Below the pieces are notes generated by a model. It was not told the DNA's origin. It saw nothing but the letters and a program-made list of their open reading frames with translations, and ran no database searches. A stretch of DNA of 49,606 nucleotides, from assembly GCA_903929735.1 (NCBI GenBank), contig CAIYVW010000043.1, forward strand, positions 1-49,606. The letters are read 5' to 3'. The position numbers and the translations under genes were made by a program. Shown here one piece after another: positions 11,215 through 31,110 of this stretch. Position 1 is the stretch's first letter, and each line of letters opens with the position of its first letter. Origin of the DNA: an uncultured bacterium. Its GTDB lineage: Bacteria > Patescibacteriota > Minisyncoccia > Phycocordibacterales > UBA9973.

Positions 11215-11220
11215 GAGACC

Positions 11221-11243
11221 AGATAGAGGCTTCGCCTCTATCT
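11221..11243 (+). repeat. REP-like hairpin copy 1 (upstream of the RAYT gene)
   Basis: AGATAGAGGC-TTC-GCCTCTATCT, 10-bp stem. Confidence 0.85.
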
Positions 11244-11279
11244 ATTAATAAAGAATTTAAATTATAGTATAATAAGTTT

Positions 11280-11996
11280 ATGAGCACCAGAAGACAGCCT
11301 CTTATAACAGGAGAAATGTATCATGTTTACAATCGAGGAGTGGATAAGCGAGATATTTTTTCTGATATAAATGATCTTTATCGTTTTATAGAAAGTATTA
11401 AAGAATTTAATAGGGTAGGAAAAATAAATAGTCTTGCTAACTTAAGAAAATCTAAAAATCCTCAGATAGAGGCTTCGCCTCTATCTGAGGAGGAACATTT
11501 AGTGGAAATTATTGCTTATTGTTTTAATCCGAATCATTTTCATTTAATACTAAAACAGTCAAGAGATGGTGGTATAGCTGACTATATGAAAAAATTACAG
11601 GGAGGTTATACTTATTATTTTAATGTAAAAAATTCTAGATCTGGTTCATTATTTCAAGGAGTTTTCAAATCAAATTTAATAAGTAATGAAAATTATTTTA
11701 ATAAGTTGATTGGGTATGTCAATAAAAATTATTTAATTCATAGCATTCCAGAGAATAAAAATAATTTAATTTTTTCTGGAGATTATGAATATGAAAATAA
11801 TAAATTTAATATTATTTCTAAAAAAGAAGGTCAAAGAATTTTAGAGTTATTTGGAGGTGTAAATAAATTTAAAAAACATTGCGATGAAATAGTTTCTATA
11901 ATTAAGGAAGAAAGAGGGAAGAAATCTTTACTCGAAGATGAAGATTTAAATGTAATTATAGAAAGTCTTCCAGATAGAGGCGAAGCCTCTATCTGA
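11280..11996 (+). CDS. REP-associated tyrosine transposase (RAYT; Y1_Tnp / IS200-like)
   Basis: N-terminal YHVYNRG, HUH motif NPNHFHLIL, YTYYFNVKNSRSGSLFQGVFKS, catalytic-Tyr region LIGYVNKNY. Confidence 0.85.
   Translation: MSTRRQPLITGEMYHVYNRGVDKRDIFSDINDLYRFIESIKEFNRVGKINSLANLRKSKNPQIEASPLSEEEHLVEIIAYCFNPNHFHLILKQSRDGGIADYMKKLQGGYTYYFNVKNSRSGSLFQGVFKSNLISNENYFNKLIGYVNKNYLIHSIPENKNNLIFSGDYEYENNKFNIISKKEGQRILELFGGVNKFKKHCDEIVSIIKEERGKKSLLEDEDLNVIIESLPDRGEASI
11464..11486 (+). repeat. REP-like hairpin copy 2, embedded in-frame in the RAYT CDS
   Basis: Identical 23-mer, extended to CTCAGATAGAGGCTTCGCCTCTATCTGAG. Encodes PQIEASPLSE. Confidence 0.85.
11972..11994 (-). repeat. REP-like hairpin copy 3 (inverted), overlapping the RAYT stop codon
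   Basis: AGATAGAGGCGAAGCCTCTATCT is the reverse complement of copy 1. Encodes the C-terminal DRGEASI, and the TGA stop begins at its last base (11994). Confidence 0.85.
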
Positions 11997-12082
11997 TAAT
12001 TTTTAGGGAAAATGGTCTTTATATTGTGTTTAAGGCTATTTTTCTTTCTTTCTTTTTTATTATTATTTGATATAATATAAGT

Positions 12083-24901: not shown

Positions 24902-25249
24902 ATGCTAAAATATAATAACAATATGACAACAATAAGTATAAATATAATAGAGCCATATCTATCCTATATTTTAAATGGCCAAAAGATTATCGAAGGTCGT
25001 TTGAATAAGGGTAAATTTAAAGATTTAAAAATAGGAGATATTTTGCTTATTGGTACCGAGAAAAAAATATTTAATATAGAAAGAATAAGTATATATGATA
25101 ATTTTAAAGATATGCTTAGTAAAGAAGGTGTTCATAATGTAGTTCCCAATAAAGATACAGTAGAAGAAGCTGTAGAAGTTTATTATGGTTTTTATACTAA
25201 AGAACAAGAGAGTAAATTTGGAGTTCTTGCTATTAAAATTAAAGAATAA
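24902..25249 (+). CDS. ASCH (ASC-1 homology, PUA-like) domain protein
   Basis: ISINIIEPYLSYILNGQKIIEGRLNKGKFKDLKIGDILLI is typical of the ASCH N-terminus. The likely true start is Met8 (24923). Confidence 0.65.
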   Translation: MLKYNNNMTTISINIIEPYLSYILNGQKIIEGRLNKGKFKDLKIGDILLIGTEKKIFNIERISIYDNFKDMLSKEGVHNVVPNKDTVEEAVEVYYGFYTKEQESKFGVLAIKIKE

Positions 25250-25253
25250 ATAT

Positions 25254-25733
25254 ATGATTATATTTCTTAATGGTTCGATAAATTCAGGTAAAACAACAAT
25301 AGCTAATATATTAGCTAAAAAAAATTCTAATACTGCATTATTAGAAATAGATACACTTAGGCAAATGATAAACTGGATGCCTATTGATAAGGCAGTTCCT
25401 ATAAATTTAGAAAATGTAGTATCTTTAATAAGAAATTTTTCAAACAAAAAATTTAATGTAATAGTTCCATATCCACTTTCTCAAAAAAATCATGATTATG
25501 TAATGAACGAATTAAAAGATATTAATACTAAAATATTTGTATTTACTCTTTCTCCTAAATTGGAAAAAGCTCTTACTAATCGAGGGAATAGGGAATTAGA
25601 TGATTGGGAAGTTGAAAGAATTAAATATCATTATAATATTGGTATACATAATCCAATATTTGGAGAAATTATAGATAATACTGAACAGACACCAGAAGAA
25701 ACCGCAAATTATATTTTGAGAAAAATATCTTAA
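25254..25733 (+). CDS. P-loop kinase, chloramphenicol-phosphotransferase-like / AAA_33
   Basis: MIIFLNGSINSGKTTIANILAKK...LLEIDTL. Start moved to the ATG at 25254, since track ORF 25185 overlaps the ASCH gene. Confidence 0.6.
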   Translation: MIIFLNGSINSGKTTIANILAKKNSNTALLEIDTLRQMINWMPIDKAVPINLENVVSLIRNFSNKKFNVIVPYPLSQKNHDYVMNELKDINTKIFVFTLSPKLEKALTNRGNRELDDWEVERIKYHYNIGIHNPIFGEIIDNTEQTPEETANYILRKIS

Positions 25734-25738
25734 TTTAA

Positions 25739-25810
25739 TTGTGAACCTACCGGGACCGTGAGTACACTTATCGAACCTTACAGGTTCAGTACACCTTTTC
25801 CGTTCGTATA
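25739..25810 (-). repeat. Decayed tRNA-Glu 3'-half remnant (direct repeat of the tRNA 3' end)
   Basis: TTGTGAACCTACCGGGA compared with TTGTGACCCTACCGGGA at 25912..25928. A further ATCGAACC (T-arm) match follows a 14-nt insertion. Confidence 0.55.
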
Positions 25811-25841
25811 CTCACACGGAAAAGGTTTTCGCTTCCCGGAC

Positions 25842-25885
25842 GCAAAGTATGCAGATACTTTGCTTAGGGTCATAACAGAAAATAC
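25842..25885 (+). repeat. Structured repeat, copy R1 (partial)
   Basis: GCAAAGTAT-GCAG-ATACTTTGC, then AGGGTCAT and ..CAGAAAATA. Matches the 5' hairpin, AGGGTCAT box and 3' arm of R2. Confidence 0.5.
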
Positions 25886-25900
25886 ACTCTTGACGAGTGT
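25884..25900 (-). terminator. Weak hairpin downstream of tRNA-Glu
   Basis: Minus strand ACACTC-GTCAA-GAGTGT followed by ATTTTCT. Confidence 0.3.
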
Positions 25901-25914
25901 AAATTTTCATGTTG

Positions 25915-25986
25915 TGACCCTACCGGGAATCGAACCCGGATTACCGGCTTGAAAAGCCGATGTCCTAACCGTTAGACGATAAGGCC
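25915..25986 (-). tRNA. tRNA-Glu (anticodon UUC), CCA not encoded
   Basis: Hand-folded cloverleaf: GGCCTTA/TAGGGTC acceptor, GTCT..GGAC D-arm, anticodon loop TTTTCAA, T-arm CCGGG-TTCGATT-CCCGG, discriminator A. Confidence 0.88.
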
Positions 25987-26020
25987 AATATTAAACTTTA
26001 CTAACTTTATCTTCTAATTG

Positions 26021-26037
26021 GTCAGACGATAAGGCCA
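26021..26037 (-). repeat. Duplicate of the tRNA-Glu 5' end, 50 nt upstream of the gene
   Basis: GTCAGACGATAAGGCCA compared with GTTAGACGATAAGGCCA at 25971..25987 (16 of 17). Confidence 0.6.
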
Positions 26038-26142
26038 GATAATTACTAATTAATAATTACGAATTAGTATAACATTTTTTGCCAAAAAGACAAATTATTA
26101 ATCTAAATTTATAAAGAAATATTTTTATGATATAATTATAAA

Positions 26143-27648
26143 ATGATTAAAAAACAAATTGCATTAATAGTTCTAGATGGCTGGGGTTACAGAGAAGATA
26201 AGAAAGATAATGCTATAGCTGCTGCTCATAAGCCAAATTTTGATGAAATATGGGCAAAGTATCCTCATACAACTTTAGATGCTTCTGCGTTTGCTGTAGG
26301 GCTACCTAGCGGGCAGATGGGTAATAGTGAAGTGGGTCATATGACTATAGGAGCAGGAAGGCCACTTGATCAAGATTTAGTAAGAATAGATAAATCTATA
26401 TCTTCGGGTGATTTTGCCAATAATTTGGCTTTTGTTGAATTATTCAATCATATAAAAATGAATGACTCGACTCTTCATGTTATGGGTCTTTTGTCTCCTG
26501 GAGGAGTCCATAGTCATATGAATCATCTTTTTGCTTTTCTTAAAGTAGCATTTGATAATGAAATTAGTAAAGTTGTAATTCATGTTTTTACTGATGGACG
26601 AGATGTTCCTCCTCAGAGTGCAGCTGGATATATAAAAGAATTAGAAGAAAAAATTAAAGAAATAGGCATAGGGTCTATTGCTTCAATTTCAGGACGTCTT
26701 TATGCTATGGATAGGGATAATAATTGGGATAGATTATCGAAAGTAGAAGAAGTAATAATGAAAGGAGAAGGTAAAGTCTGCGATGTGGATCCATCTTTAT
26801 ATGTAGAGAATTTATATAAAGAAGGAGTTGTAGATGAACACATCGAACCATTTATATGTTTAGATAAAGAAGGACAGAAACATACAATTCAGAAAAATGA
26901 TGGAATTTTCTTTTTCAATTTTAGAGCAGACAGAGCTCGTATGCTTACACATAAGATAATAGAAATGAAAGAAACGATGAATATTCTTTTGGTTACTATG
27001 ACAGACTATGGTTCAGAATATAAAAGTTTGGTGGCTTTTCCTCCGATTAAGATCGAAACTACTTTAGCAAAAGAATTGTCTAATGCAGGTCTTACTCAAG
27101 CTCATATAACAGAAACAGAGAAATTTGCACATGCTACTTACTTTTTAGATGGAGGAGTAGAGAAGCCTTATCCTGGTGAAGAATATATTCTGATACCTAG
27201 TCGTAAGGATATACTCACTCATGACTTAGCTCCAAAAATGAAAGCTGAAGCAATAGCAGATAAAGTAATAGAGCAAATAAAGAAGGGGACTGATTTTATT
27301 TTTATTAATTTTGCCAATGCAGATATGGTAGGTCATACAGCAAATGTTCCTGCCATAATAACTGCTGTAGAAGAAATAGATAAAGAATTAGGTAGAGTTT
27401 TGGAAGTATTACATTCAAATGGAGGAGTGGCTTGTATAACAGCTGATCATGGGAATGCAGAAATAAATATAGACCAAAAGACAGGAGAAAGACATACTTC
27501 GCATACAACTGATCCTGTGCCTTTCATACTTACGAATATGACTGGAATTTTGCATGAGGGTACATTAGCAGATGTAACTCCTACAATTCTTAAAATTATA
27601 GATATTAAAAAGCCTGATTGTATGACGGGGAATAGTCTTATTGATTAG
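26143..27648 (+). CDS. gpmI: 2,3-bisphosphoglycerate-independent phosphoglycerate mutase
   Basis: LIVLDGWGYRED, GNSEVGHMTIGAGR, catalytic-Ser context, C-terminal ADHGNAE. Confidence 0.95.
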   Translation: MIKKQIALIVLDGWGYREDKKDNAIAAAHKPNFDEIWAKYPHTTLDASAFAVGLPSGQMGNSEVGHMTIGAGRPLDQDLVRIDKSISSGDFANNLAFVELFNHIKMNDSTLHVMGLLSPGGVHSHMNHLFAFLKVAFDNEISKVVIHVFTDGRDVPPQSAAGYIKELEEKIKEIGIGSIASISGRLYAMDRDNNWDRLSKVEEVIMKGEGKVCDVDPSLYVENLYKEGVVDEHIEPFICLDKEGQKHTIQKNDGIFFFNFRADRARMLTHKIIEMKETMNILLVTMTDYGSEYKSLVAFPPIKIETTLAKELSNAGLTQAHITETEKFAHATYFLDGGVEKPYPGEEYILIPSRKDILTHDLAPKMKAEAIADKVIEQIKKGTDFIFINFANADMVGHTANVPAIITAVEEIDKELGRVLEVLHSNGGVACITADHGNAEINIDQKTGERHTSHTTDPVPFILTNMTGILHEGTLADVTPTILKIIDIKKPDCMTGNSLID

Positions 27649-27714
27649 AATATTAATAATTATAAACCTTGATAATTAGAGGTTTTTTGAGTATAATCAA
27701 GAAGTTAATATTTA

Positions 27715-27801
27715 GGAAGCGTGGCTGAGTGGTTGAAAGCACCGCTCTCGAAAAGCGGCAGGGGTGAAAACTCCTCGTGAGTTCAAATCTCACCGCTTCC
27801 G
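27715..27801 (+). tRNA. tRNA-Ser (anticodon CGA), long variable arm, CCA not encoded
   Basis: GGAAGCG/CGCTTCC acceptor, anticodon stem CCGCT/AGCGG with loop CTCGAAA, T-arm GTGAG-TTCAAAT-CTCAC. Confidence 0.9.
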
Positions 27802-27825
27802 CATTGATATTGACTAAAAACCTTT

Positions 27826-27898
27826 GCGCGGTTAGCTCAGTTGGTAGAGCGACCCCTTGACGTGGGGTAGGTCACAGGTTCGACTCCTGTATCGCGCA
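27826..27898 (+). tRNA. tRNA-Val (anticodon GAC), CCA not encoded
   Basis: GCGCGGT/ATCGCGC acceptor, GCTC..GAGC D-arm, loop TTGACGT, T-arm ACAGG-TTCGACT-CCTGT. Confidence 0.9.
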
Positions 27899-27979
27899 CA
27901 AAGTATAGGAATACTTTGTACGAGGCCTAGTGCGACGGCACGAGCCAGGGTCATGCAAATTTTCAGTAGAAAATTATGC
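27898..27979 (+). ncRNA. Structured repeat, copy R2 (candidate ncRNA or MITE-like element abutting the tRNA-Val 3' end)
   Basis: Three hairpins: ACAAAGTAT-AGGA-ATACTTTGT; GTGC-GACG-GCAC inside a GC-rich arm; GCAAATTTTC-AGTA-GAAAATT(A)TGC. AGGGTCAT box. Homologous to R1 and R3. Confidence 0.45.
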
Positions 27980-28028
27980 CTGAACACAAAATTACCATTA
28001 GGTTATTTTTTAAATTAATTTTAGATAC

Positions 28029-28787
28029 ATGAGTACACAAATAATAATTTTAGCAGCGGGAAAAGGTAAAAGAATGGAATCAGATGATCCTAAAGCTTTG
28101 GCTCCTCTTAGAGGGAAGCCATTTTTAGAACATATCTTAGGAACATTATCTAAGCTTAATTTACCGATAGAACCAGTTATCGTTGTTGGTCATAAGAAGG
28201 AAAGAATTTTTGAAGTATTTGGAGAAAATCATAAATATGCTCATCAAAAAGAACAATTAGGTACAGGGCATGCTGTTTTGTCAGCAAAAGACTATGTTAA
28301 CTCAAATCATGAAATGGTTTTTGTTGTTTCATCAGACCAACCTTTAATATCAGAACAAACTATTAATGATATTATAAATGCTTATCAAAAAGAAAAATCA
28401 GTAATAACAATGGGCACCGTAATTCTTCCTGATTTTAATGATTGGAGAGCAGGAGCATATAATTTAGGTAGGATAATAAGAGATGAAAATGGAGAAGTTT
28501 TAAAAATAACAGAATACAAAGATGCCACAGAAGAAGAGAGGCAAATAAAAGAAATAAATCCTGCTATCTATGCTTTTGATTCAAAATGGTTATGGAGTAA
28601 TATAAATAATTTGAAGAATTTAAATGCTCAAGGTGAGTATTATCTTACAGACTTAGTAAAAATAGCTCAAGAACAAGGACATAAGATAAAAGCTATTCCT
28701 GTTTCAAATATGATGGAAATATTCCAGCCTAATACAAAAGCAGAATTAGAATTACTTGAAGAAATTTTAATAAAAGAAGGAAAATAA
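28029..28787 (+). CDS. Sugar-1-phosphate nucleotidyltransferase, GlmU N-terminal (uridyltransferase) domain only
   Basis: [22 protein letters not shown] and [11 protein letters not shown]. Ends at 252 aa with no left-handed beta-helix acetyltransferase repeats. Confidence 0.8.
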
Positions 28788-28829
28788 AAATAAGCTGTAA
28801 ATCTATTCTAGATTTACAGCTTATTTTTT
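28786..28829. terminator. Bidirectional terminator (nucleotidyltransferase / trxB convergent pair)
   Basis: AAGCTGTAAATCTA-TTC-TAGATTTACAGCTT flanked by A-rich and T-rich runs. Confidence 0.88.
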
Positions 28830-28836
28830 ATGATTT

Positions 28837-29763
28837 TTATTTATTCTTCTGTATCCATATATAGATATCTTCGACTGCCTTTACGGCATCTCCGACAGCT
28901 ATATTGTTTTGGTGATATTTACAGTTTGTACAGTCTCCAGCAGCCCAGATACCTTCATTTGAAGTGGCTTGAGTTGTCGGATCTACTATGACTTTATTAT
29001 TCTCATCAATAGAAACTATGTCTTTTACAAATTCAATATTAGGTGTTTGTCCAATTTCTACAAAAATACCGTTTGATTCTAATGTATGTTCTTCTCCTGT
29101 AATTTTATCTTTATAAGTTAAAGAATTAACAAATTGATCTCCATCTACTTTTAGAATTTCTGCATTTTTTATCGCTTTAAATTTTGGATTTTCTAATAAT
29201 TTTTTAATTGTAATTTCATCTGCTCTGAATTTTTCACTTCTATGAATTAAAGTTACACTTTTACAGTATGCTAGAAGTTGAGCTGCTGTTTCAAATGCTG
29301 CATTTCCTCCACCAATTACAAGCACATCTTGATCTCCATATAATGGTCCGTCGCAAGAGGCGCAATAAGTTATTCCTTTATGTTCATATTTATCTGCATT
29401 GATTGCCTCTAATTTTCGTCTACCACTACCTGTGGCTACTAATATAGTTTTAGAAGTAAATTCTTTACCTGTTTCTGATTTAATAGTAAAAATATTATCG
29501 TTTTTAGTTATGGATATTATCCTTTCTCCTTCTATTAGATCTAAATGTTCTCCTTTATAATATAAAACATGTTTTTTAAGACTAGAAACTAATTCCATCC
29601 CTGATATTTCAGGAGTTCCAATCCAATTATAAATAACTTCAGAAACCATTGACTGGCCACCAAATTCACTTGTGATAAGAGCTGTTTTTAGATGTTTACG
29701 AGCTCCATATATAGCAGCAGCTGAGCCTGCTGGTCCTCCTCCTAATATTATTAAATCATACAT
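28837..29763 (-). CDS. trxB: Thioredoxin-disulfide reductase
   Basis: GGGPAGSAAAIYGAR FAD motif, redox CASC, GGGNAAFE NADPH motif, AAGDC. Confidence 0.93.
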   Translation of the reverse strand: MYDLIILGGGPAGSAAAIYGARKHLKTALITSEFGGQSMVSEVIYNWIGTPEISGMELVSSLKKHVLYYKGEHLDLIEGERIISITKNDNIFTIKSETGKEFTSKTILVATGSGRRKLEAINADKYEHKGITYCASCDGPLYGDQDVLVIGGGNAAFETAAQLLAYCKSVTLIHRSEKFRADEITIKKLLENPKFKAIKNAEILKVDGDQFVNSLTYKDKITGEEHTLESNGIFVEIGQTPNIEFVKDIVSIDENNKVIVDPTTQATSNEGIWAAGDCTNCKYHQNNIAVGDAVKAVEDIYIWIQKNK

Positions 29764-29794
29764 AGTATCTATATTATACTAAATAAATTAAAAA

Positions 29795-29917
29795 ACAAAA
29801 AAAATCCAAATAAGATTTTTCCAAAAGGTCCGGATAATTTTCTGCTGAAAATTTCCTTATAGCTCGGCCCGTCGGCCTTGTGCATGCCCTTTTGGTAAAA
29901 CTTATTTGGAATTTTTT
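29795..29917 (-). ncRNA. Structured repeat, copy R3: nested multi-stem element filling the ftsZ-trxB spacer (candidate ncRNA or complex terminator)
   Basis: Outer stem TCCAAATAAG/CTTATTTGGA, second stem CCAAAAGG/CCTTTTGG. Inner hairpins GGAT-AATTTTC-TGCT-GAAAATT-TCC and GGCC-CGTC-GGCC. U-runs on both strands. Confidence 0.5.
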
Positions 29918-29922
29918 GTTCT

Positions 29923-31110
29923 TTACTTCTTATTTCTTCTTAAGAATGCTGGAACTGTACTCCAATCATCTGTATCGTCTATAAATAAATCGTCTTCTAT
30001 TTTTTCTACCTTATCAGCTTTTTTTAAATATTCTGATGAGTTATCTTTTATTTGTTCTTTATTTACAGTATGACTTATTTCTTCCTTAGGAGAAGAGGTG
30101 GCTATAGTTTCAGTGGTCTTTTGTTGAATTTGGAATAATGAACGTTTAGGCATATCAGTAGGGAATCCAGTAGCAATAACTGTTACTTTCATTTCTCCTT
30201 TCTTAAGCTTGTCGTCACTTATAGTTCCAAAAATAACTTTGGCTTCTTTGTCTATAGATTCAGTTATAACTTTTGCAGCTTCTTGTATTTCATGGATAGT
30301 AAGATCTTCACCTCCAGAGATAGCAAATAATACTCCTTTTGCTCCTGATATAGAAAGATCAAGGAGAGGAGAATTAATAGCTTGAAGGGCAGCTTTTTCA
30401 GCTCTACCTTCTCCTGCGGCTATTCCTACTCCCATTAATGCACTTCCTGCATCAGACATAACAGCTTTAATATCAGCAAAGTCTACATTTATCATTCCTG
30501 GTGTTGTAATAAGTTCTGAAATACCTTCAACTGCTTGTTTTAGGACTTCATCACAAAGACCAAATGCTTGTCTGAATCCTACATCTTTACCAGAGATAAC
30601 TATAAGTCTATCATTTGGAATTACTAGAATAGCATCTACTTCTTTTTCTAATTCAGAAAGTCCCATTTCTGCTAATTTCATTCTTTGATTACCTTCAAAA
30701 GAAAAAGGTTTAGTAACAACAGCAACAGTAAGAATACCTTGTTCTTTAGCAGCTTGGGCTACTATAGGAGCAGCTCCAGTACCTGTTCCACCTCCCATAC
30801 CACATGCTATAAATACCATATCAGCTCCTTTTATAACATCTTGTATTTCTGCTTTTGTTTCTTCGGCAGCTCTTCTTCCTATATCTGGATTCATACCAGC
30901 TCCTAGTCCTTTGGTAAGATTTTTACCAAGATGAACTTTTTTCTCAGCTAATGAGTTGTGTAAATCTTGAGTATCAGTATTCATAACAATGAATTCTACT
31001 CCTTTTACTTTTGAAGCTATCATATGATTCAGTGCATTTTTTCCTGAGCCACCAATTCCGATAACTTTAATTCTTGCAAATGATTCAATTTCTGGATTTA
31101 ATTTAGGCAT
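29923..31110 (-). CDS. ftsZ: Cell division protein FtsZ
   Basis: GIGGSGKNALNHM and the tubulin signature GMGGGTGTGAAP. C-terminal linker ending in DDWSTVPAFLRR. Confidence 0.97.
   Translation of the reverse strand: MPKLNPEIESFARIKVIGIGGSGKNALNHMIASKVKGVEFIVMNTDTQDLHNSLAEKKVHLGKNLTKGLGAGMNPDIGRRAAEETKAEIQDVIKGADMVFIACGMGGGTGTGAAPIVAQAAKEQGILTVAVVTKPFSFEGNQRMKLAEMGLSELEKEVDAILVIPNDRLIVISGKDVGFRQAFGLCDEVLKQAVEGISELITTPGMINVDFADIKAVMSDAGSALMGVGIAAGEGRAEKAALQAINSPLLDLSISGAKGVLFAISGGEDLTIHEIQEAAKVITESIDKEAKVIFGTISDDKLKKGEMKVTVIATGFPTDMPKRSLFQIQQKTTETIATSSPKEEISHTVNKEQIKDNSSEYLKKADKVEKIEDDLFIDDTDDWSTVPAFLRRNKK

Follow-up and report, generated by a model that had tools for sequence, protein, structure and literature searches.

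Three short segments (R1, R2 and R3) of the window, the 49,606-nt stretch of DNA analysed here, appear to be three copies, each of a different architectural type, of one modular family of non-coding elements, a reading to which we assign a probability of about 0.55. The family consists of small hairpin-built elements that adjoin tRNA genes and lie within terminator hairpins, and it is widespread in Parcubacteria; its hosts are Parcubacteria/Paceibacteria (Nomurabacteria to Kaiserbacteria), which are CPR bacteria, and the GC content of element-bearing sequences ranges from 0.26 to 0.59. Overall, we somewhat favour a non-autonomous family that is repeatedly gained and lost, folds as a single strand in a strand-specific manner, is co-transcribed with tRNA operons and may spread between sites.

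A sequence-only reading of this DNA had proposed a new ncRNA or MITE-like family, and this proposal was supported by the silence of Rfam, many further copies and covariation. Rfam 15 returned only three tRNAs from the window, both at the gathering threshold and at E ≤ 10, leaving the claim of novelty standing; no Rfam family matched 20 loci with canonical copies, and we found no earlier description of the family in the literature. At least 120 metagenome loci matched a strict pattern with 25 specified bases (metagenome counts below are among the loci listed), and tandem arrays of elements occur.

Three architectures in one window

Analysis of the elements revealed modules T (a spacer or terminator hairpin), X (a hairpin with a CUGC or GGGA loop), Y (a variable hairpin), Z (a hairpin with a UGUAA loop), W (a hairpin with a UACU loop), hp1 (GACG loop, closed by a nearly invariant GGA/GA internal loop) and hp2 (a long hairpin with an AGCA loop). 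In the general tRNA-linked layout, the tRNA 3' end (S) is followed by a spacer hairpin, an antisense copy (S'), the core hairpins and a distal sense copy of S. As had been claimed, the segments are GC-rich (0.45-0.57) compared to their surroundings (about 0.2-0.35).

Table 1. Positions of the elements, their modules and the adjoining tRNA genes in the window
Feature	Position	Strand	Description
R1 distal sense copy of tRNA-Glu 3' end	25740..25755	-	TCCCGGTAGGTTCACA vs TCCCGGTAGGGTCACA in tRNA
R1 box W	25756..25772	-	mini-hairpin GATAAG TG TACT CA CGG
R1 hairpin Z	25773..25787	-	GAACC TGTAA GGTTC
R1 hairpin Y	25794..25825	-	variable hairpin, 9-bp stem
R1 S'T	25826..25842	-	CGTCCGGGAAGCGAAAA; antisense copy of tRNA-Glu T-stem 3' strand and T-loop
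R1 hairpin X	25843..25862	-	CAAAGTAT CTGC ATACTTTG
R1 S'acc	25863..25873	-	ATGACCCTAAG; antisense copy of tRNA-Glu acceptor 3' strand; reads AGGGTCAT on plus strand
R1 module T	25874..25913	-	terminator-like hairpin ACACTC GTCAA GAGTGT and T-rich tail, directly 3' of tRNA-Glu
tRNA-Glu(UUC)	25914..25986	-	ARAGORN; Rfam tRNA, 63.2 bits; 3' end is the S copied by R1
tRNA-Val(GAC)	27826..27899	+	ARAGORN, Rfam; R2 abuts directly
R2 X-type hairpin	27899..27918	+	CAAAGTAT AGGA ATACTTTG; extended by CAC/GTA pairing with tRNA end
R2 helix P1 (GGC/GCC) enclosing hp1	27924..27946	+	hp1 is GTGC GACG GCAC; covariance-model match, covariation
R2 long hp2	27948..27985	+	GGGTCATGCAAATTTTC AGTA GAAAATTATGCCTGAAC, bulged A
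R3 outer stem, 3' arm	29791..29828	-	pairs with 29887-29924
R3 hp2	29832..29856	-	GGAAATTTTC AGCA GAAAATTATCC
R3 hp1	29866..29877	-	GGCC GACG GGCC
R3 outer stem, 5' arm	29887..29924	-	AT-rich; homologous to a terminator stem

R2 is the short form and, as had been noticed, lies directly behind tRNA-Val; judged from its position, it would have to be transcribed with the tRNA-Ser/tRNA-Val/nucleotidyltransferase unit. Its fold is more stable than those of shuffled sequences (z = -3.5). The 21-nt core that R2 was said to have in common with R3 occurs exactly twice in the window, at 27957-27977(+) and 29834-29854(-), and none of 100 shuffles contained two or more matches. The reported AGYA-looped hp2 with its bulged A and the pair-preserving change in the hp1 stem, GTGC/GCAC in R2 and GGCC/GGCC in R3 around the same GACG loop, were likewise confirmed.

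R1, previously described as a partial copy at 25842..25885 on the plus strand between a kinase gene and tRNA-Glu, proved to be the long form of the tRNA-linked layout: its structured block covers 25740-25913 (174 nt) of the minus strand, is read in the direction of the minus-strand tRNA-Glu gene and stands behind it, with a different module set (T, X, Y, Z and W). Its fold is also more stable than those of shuffles (z = -5.7 to -6.9). Of the hairpin and box thought to be common to R1 and R2, the hairpin is genuine (CAAAGTAT-N4-ATACTTTG is perfect at 25843 and 27899), making X the sole module common to both. Homology of the box, AGGGTCAT, was rejected as coincidental: in R1 it is the complement of the antisense tRNA-Glu acceptor copy, and in R2 the foot of the long hp2 helix. 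R2 and R3 do have covarying hp1 and hp2 hairpins in common, but R1 is of a different module type and on the opposite strand, and the description tRNA-end-linked modular elements fits the family better than three copies of one RNA.

The modules of R1 recur in relatives. The stems of X covary around an unchanged loop (CGAGATAT/ATATCTCG, CACGACAT/ATGTCGTG and CAAAGCAA/TTGCTTTG); four of the five pairs of Z covary across 30 copies with an invariant TGTAA loop, part of the paired signal being ascertainment since these copies were gathered by a rule demanding pairing; and a U-A pair of W is replaced by C-G in 6 of 13 copies. In metagenome loci, W is also found 3' of B cores. Loci L005, L024, L034 and L042 carry A-tract/stem/T-tract hairpins at the position of module T, and in L042 the acceptor copy extends with the local trailer (GCGGTGACCCTA vs tagggtcaccgc). 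In tRNA-Val-linked copies, an antisense copy of the tRNA-Val T-arm takes the place of that of tRNA-Glu.

R3 is the free-standing palindromic (MITE-like) form, with the hp1-hp2 core within the loop of the ftsZ terminator hairpin. It is bounded by a 38-nt outer inverted repeat (29791-29828 and 29887-29924), its fold deviates strongly from shuffles (z = -7.7), and compensatory change affects 21 of the 33 pairs of this type. In relatives, the R3 type is found between ftsZ and trxB in 8 loci, once inverted; many loci have a simple terminator in this spacer, and others have unrelated cores. The presence of simple terminators at the R3 site, together with the terminator-like T modules, could suggest ordinary intrinsic terminators with chance similarity. 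However, the hp1-hp2 core is a specific covarying motif that recurs in hundreds of places, and R2 is located within an operon and lacks a U-tract; we consider this explanation, whose probability is negligible, refuted by the covariance-model and covariation results.

Conservation of the hp1-hp2 core

A covariance model was seeded with 61 cores, comprising R2, 53 metagenome copies and 7 copies from the loci of related genomes. Across the window it matched R2 and R3 and nothing else: R2 at 27924-27985 with 71.3 bits, a score that is partly by construction because R2 is in the seed, and R3, which is outside the seed, at 29832-29883 with 36.5 bits (E 2e-6). Among 44 related genome loci there were 24 matches, in 17 of the loci. 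Paired cells made up 98.2% of the 61-copy alignment compared to 85.1% in shuffles and 35-49% in slid controls, although part of this signal is ascertainment, the copies having been gathered by a pattern fixing 25 columns. Double-change cells numbered 170 vs 46, a count that none of 500 shuffles reached, and P1 and hp1 covary across the 61 copies. Together with the changes in R3-type stems, Z and W, covariation extends far beyond the two pairs first noticed, just as further copies were found elsewhere, some also abutting tRNA 3' ends.

The conserved part of the elements folds on one strand only, the tRNA-sense strand. A G30.U58 pair is present in 60 of 61 copies, though the search pattern permitted A-U, and G32.U56 in 31 of 61. 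Orthologous cores are 67-100% identical, compared to 38-55% at third codon positions of trxB. Copies within one genome differ (about 81% identity between the Val and Ser copies of L036), and orthologous copies can be identical, a pattern that looks more like long-lived selected features than recent bursts and weighs against the mobile-element reading favoured here.

These features raise the possibility, which we regard as tentative and rather doubtful, that the elements form a cis-acting RNA domain within the transcripts of tRNA operons and benefit the host, their copies having arisen by duplication and been retained by selection. The core, with its GGA/GA loop and G.U pair, would bind a conserved protein, and the antisense and sense arms would mimic the helix of acceptor and T-stem, leading RNase P, RNase Z or the CCA-adding enzyme to process or insulate the transcript. 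Such a domain would account for constraint far above that on synonymous sites, for the conserved G.U pair and near-invariant internal loop, and for orthologous copies being closer than copies within one genome. In addition, R2-type copies must be transcribed, because the L003 element lies only about 10 nt from the next ATG. In contrast, the long forms are positioned after terminators; RNA-level selection on their cores is not self-evident, because these terminators appear efficient. Moreover, the R3 type occurs in both orientations and in L022 is antisense to both flanking genes.

Linkage to tRNA ends, gain and loss

Among the listed metagenome loci, 90 of the 91 cores with a tRNA no more than 300 nt away were co-oriented with it, including units upstream of a tRNA, as an RNA domain would also predict; the flanking tRNAs span more than 30 isoacceptors. 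Element flanks match their own tRNA and not other tRNAs, with sense copies scoring at least 10 in 36 of 79 cases (3% in controls; P about 1e-17) and antisense copies in 43 of 79 (10% in controls; P about 5e-19). The direct repeat runs from the T-loop to the tRNA 3' end, leaving the tRNA intact, and in some loci (L029, L009) the distal copy is not identical to the resident end. Among positions at which tRNA end and distal copy disagree, S' matches the tRNA in 21 cases and the distal copy in one, as expected if S and S' arrived as a pair and displaced the old end. This result also speaks against a tRNA-like S'/S helix as the selected pairing of a cis-acting RNA.

Presence at the same site differs between related species. 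For example, among 44 related species the tRNA-Val site is occupied by a short B element in 8 cases and by a T-X-Y-Z element in another 8, and it is empty in at least 11, where the ATG of the next gene follows only a few bases after the tRNA. Empty sites in many close relatives and two unrelated module sets at one site both argue against a host-beneficial RNA domain.

The elements are non-autonomous and are gained and lost between related species. In the favoured reading, they would spread as DNA, recombining within the stretch of the tRNA gene from T-loop to 3' terminus; a newcomer would supply a replacement tRNA 3' end together with its terminator and an antisense arm, the previous 3' end would stay behind as the distal copy, and the inserted element would be co-transcribed, folding as an independent RNA domain without disturbing the tRNA. 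We infer this mobility from presence/absence and direct repeats only; we found no sign of an excision product or circular form, nor of a recombinase or autonomous partner. A difficulty for this route is that a crossover in the common T-loop would at first yield a chimeric tRNA, which would probably be non-functional.

Within the mobile-element reading, a special case that we consider unlikely is a folded single-stranded-DNA recombination substrate, its structure conserved for DNA transactions, in which the S/S' stem would mimic a double-stranded tRNA-end target, as in CTX-phage attP(+), and a trans-acting tyrosine or HUH (Y1) recombinase would read the core hairpins. The order S, spacer, S', core, S is, by our own derivation, what would result if a hairpin stem and a tRNA end exchanged a single strand, and the match of S' to the tRNA rather than the distal copy, the strand-specific fold with a bulged base and a Y1 transposase gene in the same window (11280-11996) are also consistent with it. 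Transfer RNA genes usually point with replication, in which case the tRNA-sense strand would be the lagging-strand template. However, the Y1 gene is flanked by hairpins (CCAGATAGAGGC...) that bear no relation to hp1 and hp2, a distinction already drawn in the sequence-only reading, both the tandem G.A-type internal loop and the conserved G.U pair are of a kind typical of RNA, and circular or excised forms were not seen. Nor was a recombinase linked to the elements: no protein recurs among the neighbours of the 120 listed metagenome loci, the largest cluster (9 of 120) being housekeeping.

Transfer RNA genes are classic integration sites, and the duplication of their 3' ends as direct repeats could suggest that larger integrative elements such as prophages or ICEs once sat in these genes and left decayed attachment-site scars. 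We consider this very improbable: the same 60-170-nt modules, covarying and strongly constrained, lie behind over 30 tRNAs, the surroundings show no recurrent integrase or phage gene, a search of viral contigs, phage genomes and plasmids gave no match to the elements, and neither the antisense arm nor the conserved loops would persist in scars.

Comparison with known systems

Like the attL/attR of tRNA-gene-targeting integrative elements, the family has a direct repeat from T-loop to 3' end beside an intact tRNA and a distal copy that may differ from the resident end; unlike them, it is only 90-250 nt long, lacks an integrase, has an extra antisense target copy and places the same cargo 3' of over 30 different tRNAs. 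Integron attC, CTX-phage attP(+) and other Xer-exploiting elements similarly have stems conserved in structure rather than sequence, a strand-specific fold with a bulged base and an inverted target-like pair that could mimic a double-stranded target, but the present family has no R/L core-site consensus and targets tRNA ends instead of attI or dif. REP/BIME with RAYT and the IS200/IS605-derived PATEs likewise consist of extragenic hairpins whose single strands could be recognised by a Y1 HUH enzyme; here, the conserved 5' tetranucleotide and clustering around a RAYT gene are absent, and the Y1 gene of the window has its own flanking hairpins, unrelated in sequence. By analogy with mascRNA (MALAT1) and plant mitochondrial t-elements, a helix in which a 3' strand resembling that of acceptor and T-stem pairs with its complement might serve as an RNase P/RNase Z substrate, although the family has no T-loop hairpin or cloverleaf and its kept pairing is with the real tRNA end.

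Finally, Correia/CREE, ERIC/IRU, pneumococcal BOX and Rickettsia RPE are likewise small, non-coding, long imperfect palindromes, intergenic, often co-transcribed and found in either orientation (as is the R3 type), with presence/absence differing between relatives and, in BOX, a modular composition. Unlike these MITE-like repeats, the present family has no known transposase partner and no fixed terminal inverted repeat, its arms being sense and antisense copies of the flanked tRNA; most copies are linked to the ends of tRNA genes, whose number seems to set a limit on copy number, and the core keeps its sequence in hosts ranging from 26-59% GC.

Recurring modular elements in the window and at syntenic loci

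Comparison of the window with 44 syntenic loci, obtained by a trxB-based scan with one genome per species and covering the DNA 3′ of tRNA-Glu, 3′ of tRNA-Val and in the ftsZ-trxB spacer, revealed that its segments R1, R2 and R3 (table) are instances of recurring modular elements, 60-170 nt long, non-coding and without an ORF. The window, which has a GC content of 30.7% and proteins whose nearest relatives are from Candidatus Nomurabacteria/Paceibacterota MAGs, holds only three copies; a covariance model gave 24 matches in 445 kb of related loci.

Positions of the features discussed
Feature	Position	Strand
Perfect 26-nt inverted repeat, 2-nt gap, just 5′ of an ORF at 2843	2788-2841	
Hairpin copies bracketing the Y1 gene	11219, 11462, 11970 (span 11219-12006)	
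Y1 transposase ORF	11280-11996	
36-nt inverted pair at the Y1 gene	11452-11487 / 11971-12006	
P-loop kinase-like gene	25185-25733	+
R1, structured block	25740-25913	-
tRNA-Glu	25914-25986	-
iPGM	26143-27648	+
tRNA-Ser	27715-27802	+
tRNA-Val	27826-27899	+
R2	27898-27979	+
Nucleotidyltransferase gene	28029-28787	+
37-nt inverted repeat, bidirectional terminator	28769-28845	
trxB	28837-29763	-
R3	29791-29924	-
ftsZ	29923-31110	-

The sequence-only reading had taken the three segments for a candidate new ncRNA or MITE-like family. Its description was confirmed in part. The three are GC-rich islands and fold better than shuffled controls; the 21-nt core occurs exactly twice in the window (R2 and R3), with two or more matches in no shuffle; the CAAAGTAT-N4-ATACTTTG hairpin has two perfect occurrences (R1 and R2); and hp1, the hairpin with the GACG loop, shows two compensatory pairs between R2 and R3. 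R1 had been described as a plus-strand partial copy of R2, which is excluded by the strand of tRNA-Glu and by the module comparison in related loci: the structured block reads in the tRNA-Glu direction. The AGGGTCAT box, proposed as a motif common to R1 and R2, was discarded because its origin differs between the two. With R1 re-assigned, the finding is real and the reading as a new family is supported. Searches of Rfam 15 (the window at gathering score, 25600-30100 at E≤10 and 20 canonical-copy loci at E≤0.1) brought up tRNAs, a single rRNA fragment and otherwise noise below threshold, none of it placing the elements in a family at or near its gathering score.

R1 exemplifies type A, in which the tRNA is followed by a terminator-like hairpin (T), the antisense of the acceptor 3′ strand, hairpin X, the antisense of the T-stem and T-loop, a variable hairpin Y, hairpin Z (loop TGTAA), a mini-hairpin W (loop TACT) and a sense copy of the tRNA 3′ end. 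Type A lies behind tRNA-Glu in the window and in the related loci L005, L024, L034 and L042, and behind tRNA-Val in L002, L009, L020, L021, L029, L032, L041 and L044; the sense and antisense pieces correspond to the preceding tRNA in every one of these. R2 represents the short form of type B, which consists of a tRNA ending in GCGCAC, an X-type hairpin, GTGCGAG, a helix (P1) enclosing hp1, and a long hairpin with an AGYA loop (hp2) that ends in GTGACC AC. The GTGCG that follows the hairpin in short forms, comparable to the 5′ GUGYG of IIC introns, is the antisense of CGCAC, and a group II (IIC) intron remnant is not supported, there being no domain V and no Intron_gpII match at E≤10. The short form lies behind tRNA-Val in eight loci; in at least 11 others that site is empty, and the nucleotidyltransferase ATG follows the tRNA by a few bases. 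Short forms such as R2 would, from their position, be transcribed within the tRNA-Ser/tRNA-Val/nucleotidyltransferase unit.

The R3 type is a three-way junction of hp1 and hp2 within a long AT-rich stem. It was found in the ftsZ-trxB spacer of eight loci, inverted in one (L022), and, in either orientation, in the convergent trxB/nucleotidyltransferase spacer of several. Loci without it have a simple terminator with a stem resembling the R3 outer stem, and where the window has a bidirectional terminator between the nucleotidyltransferase gene and trxB, an R3-type element is present instead in L002, L004, L011, L029 and L034. At a given site, the family may be present in one species and absent from a relative. 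Intrinsic terminators consist of a GC-rich stem and a following U-tract where a gene ends; on visual inspection, module T and the outer stem of R3 appear to fit this pattern. A U-tract is lacking from R2 and from the hp1-hp2 core.

Several other arrangements were observed in these regions. At R3's site in the ftsZ-trxB spacer, L019, L027, L032 and L034 carry other, unrelated GC-rich cores in long AT-rich stems, identical and in opposite orientations in L019 and L027; further families built in this way, as a "core in a terminator loop", are probable. In L003, L008, L009, L028, L033 and L040, this spacer has, 5′ of trxB, a different palindromic arrangement, rich in CTAG words (TAGGTTCTAGTGACTAGTTGCTAGTG ... 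CTAGAAACTAGAACCTAGCTACTAG), around a terminator and a TATAAT-like box. A perfect inverted repeat (AATAACTTCTATAATAAAACACTCCA / TGGAGTGTTTTATTATAGAAGTTATT) lies elsewhere in the window (table). Finally, tRNA-Glu is directed away from iPGM in the window, L002, L011, L034-L036 and L042, and toward it in L003-L005, L014, L021, L024 and L025. Recombination between inverted tRNA-end copies in the elements could have produced this flip, and element-derived repeats may drive local inversions of which it is one example.

Linkage to tRNA genes in metagenomes

A scan of metagenome contigs with a pattern fixing 25 bases of hp2 yielded at least 120 loci from groundwater, lake and sediment metagenomes, many of them from Hainich groundwater, with host GC contents of 0.26 to 0.59; one GC-rich locus belongs to Kaiserbacteria, judged from a neighbouring protein. 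Copies elsewhere, like R2, lie behind tRNA 3′ ends: among the matches listed, a same-strand tRNA of one of more than 30 isoacceptors ends within 400 nt upstream of 81 of 125 cores, and 90 of the 91 cores having a tRNA within 300 nt are co-oriented with it. In one clade, about half of the sampled tRNA-Val and tRNA-Glu loci contain a member of this single family, and tandem arrays are present.

The long form, among the matches listed, keeps a constant order of tRNA 3′ end (S), T, an antisense copy of that end (S′), CCGGAG, hp1, GAGGCG, hp2, an optional W and a distal sense copy of S, which begins in the T-loop (GAATCC...). Element flanks resemble their own tRNA far better than other tRNAs. A direct repeat of the tRNA 3′ end flanks the insert, as in L021, L032 and L085; it was seen in 36 of 79 copies among the matches listed, compared to 3% in controls, and its length is not fixed, ranging from 2 to about 24 nt. 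Units located 5′ of a tRNA (L076, L086, L168, L149 and L156) carry sense and antisense copies of that tRNA's 5′ end, and their core keeps the tRNA's orientation. B cores embedded in truncated tRNA copies were seen in these five loci, in L139 and in L036 (10700-10880). Such copies were of two kinds: the 5′ two-thirds of tRNA-Glu followed by a B core, and a free-standing unit, repeated 5′ of the genuine tRNA, which is closed by a 5′ end like that of tRNA-Ser or tRNA-Asn together with the antisense of that end.

At positions where the tRNA end and the distal copy differ, S′ matches the tRNA in 21 cases and the distal copy in one. Given this preference of S′ for the tRNA end, a helix of S′ and distal S around the core is not supported as a selected tRNA-like structure. 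Between S and S′, G.U outnumbers A.C by 42 to 28, leaning to the tRNA strand, a lean to which we give little weight because aligning without gaps over the X insertion introduces noise. Priming of reverse transcription by the mature tRNA 3′ end at S′ was also considered, and on inspection rejected because the complementarity enters the genomic trailer (CAC; CACCGC in L042) and not CCA.

Fold and conservation of the core

Among 61 distinct 62-nt cores (53 from metagenomes, seven from related genomes, and R2), 98.2% of cells pair, compared to 85.1% in shuffled and 35-49% in slid alignments, and double-sided changes number 170 versus 46 shuffled, figures subject to ascertainment by the search pattern and to the fact that a single-stranded DNA fold would give the identical signal. 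The covariation signal sits in columns that the pattern left free, namely P1 (C-G 36, A-U 16, G-C 6 and U-A 2), each of the four pairs of hp1 and the central part of hp2. Although the pattern would also have accepted A-U, 60 of 61 copies have G.U at the base of hp2, and 31 of the 61 have G.U at a further position, which places the fold on the tRNA-sense strand. Compensatory change affects 21 of 33 pairs in the R3 type, and Z and W covary in a collection with ascertainment bias. A covariance model of the 61 cores scored 71.3 bits for R2, a seed member, and 36.5 bits (E 2e-6) for R3, which was outside the seed, with no further match in the window.

The GGA/GA internal loop beneath hp1 is almost invariant. 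A kink-turn consists of a C-stem, a 3-nt bulge, tandem sheared G.A/A.G pairs and an NC-stem; compared by eye with this consensus, the loop (GCC-G-GA-stem / stem-GA-GGC) has a fitting tandem G.A arrangement, but its bulge is 1 nt and not 3, and the identity is not supported. In one B core (L087), the hp1 position is enlarged by three tandem copies of GGGGCGATTTAACAAAATCGTCCT, showing that hp1 can accommodate large insertions.

Orthologous tRNA-Val-linked cores are 67-100% identical, far above the 38-55% at third codon positions of trxB for the same pairs of genomes; the cores are thus either under purifying selection or recently spread. Copies inside one genome differ from each other, and discrete hp2 variants recur behind different tRNAs across samples, with that of L024 (Val) equal to those of L061 and L131 (Arg). 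The tRNA-Val(GAC) gene is itself a mosaic across L002-L044, with two anticodon-stem versions (GACCCC/GGGGT and GCGTCA/TGACG) and at least five T-stem versions, a pattern that suggests recombination within the gene. The distal copy in L029 has a T-stem allele found in tRNA-Val of other species.

The main rival explanation, a host-selected RNA domain of tRNA transcripts, would account for the strong constraint and the co-orientation with the tRNA, but sits poorly with empty sites, alternative module sets at one site, inverted R3 copies and long forms positioned behind terminators.

Interpretation and comparison with known systems

The data reveal a large family of non-coding, modular elements that fold strand-specifically, are linked to the ends of tRNA genes and to terminator loops, and have arms that fit the local tRNA. 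We infer that they spread by recombination inside the tRNA end, in which an incoming element would bring a new 3′ end, terminator and antisense arm and displace the old end; the observed order S, T, S′, core, S would result from a Campbell-type event and likewise from strand exchange with a folded hairpin. Tentatively, with a probability of about 0.3, we read the family as a new class of CPR tRNA-gene-end elements whose target-matching arms are re-templated for each tRNA. They may be miniature mobile elements whose folded hairpin mimics a tRNA end and which would use host or trans-acting recombinases, or a new protein-binding RNA domain marking tRNA precursors; in both forms the hp1-hp2 core would be the handle for a putative conserved protein.

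CPR/Parcubacteria genomes are tiny and streamlined. To our knowledge, very few mobile elements or non-coding RNAs have been described in them, and no account of elements of this kind in CPR came up in full-text literature searches. If mobile, the family would be a target-matched, protein-less passenger of tRNA genes; if a functional RNA, it would be a new motif linked to tRNA operons, probably with a protein partner. Either way, it bears on the annotation of CPR genomes, in which it creates pseudo-copies of tRNA 3′ ends, tRNA-like fragments and inverted repeats, and it supplies a concrete, testable motif.

Several known identities were considered and rejected. The Y1 (IS200-like/RAYT-like) transposase ORF of the window is flanked by CCAGATAGAGGCTTCGCCTCTATCTG repeats and bracketed by copies of a hairpin, CCAGATAGAGGC-TTCG/GAAG-GCCTCTATCTG; as the sequence-only reading had noticed, X, Z, hp1 and hp2 are unrelated to these repeats, which does not fit a REP/BIME-RAYT system. 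Two pattern scans of IMG/VR gave chance matches only, lying in GC-rich coding sequence, in an AT-rich phage and in an array of tRNAs, and BLAST found nothing similar in phage and plasmid collections. A box C/D-like guide is not supported for want of C/D boxes, and a TnpB omega-RNA-like scaffold-plus-guide for want of an adjacent nuclease gene. Clustering of ORFs around 120 loci revealed housekeeping neighbours, with no recurrent neighbour gene or autonomous partner.

Two known systems come closer. Like MITEs, the elements are short, non-coding and multi-copy, but they lack a fixed-length target-site duplication and a related autonomous transposon (neighbours of 120 loci, phage and plasmid searched). 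As regards the element-specific terminal inverted repeats of MITEs, the R3-type arms are imperfect and conserved at two different sites (ATAGTCTTATCAAAGGGG.../...CCCTTTGAGAAGAGCTAT), and the arms of tRNA-linked copies are tRNA-derived and differ from copy to copy. Like the att scar of a tRNA-targeting integrative element, a direct repeat of the tRNA 3′ end flanks the insert, but integrase and cargo genes are absent between the repeats in the 120 loci and in the enlarged spacers of L025 and L014, which hold ordinary ORFs. The family stands close to both MITE-like repeats and tRNA-targeting integrative elements, and is set apart from them by its tRNA-templated sense and antisense arms.
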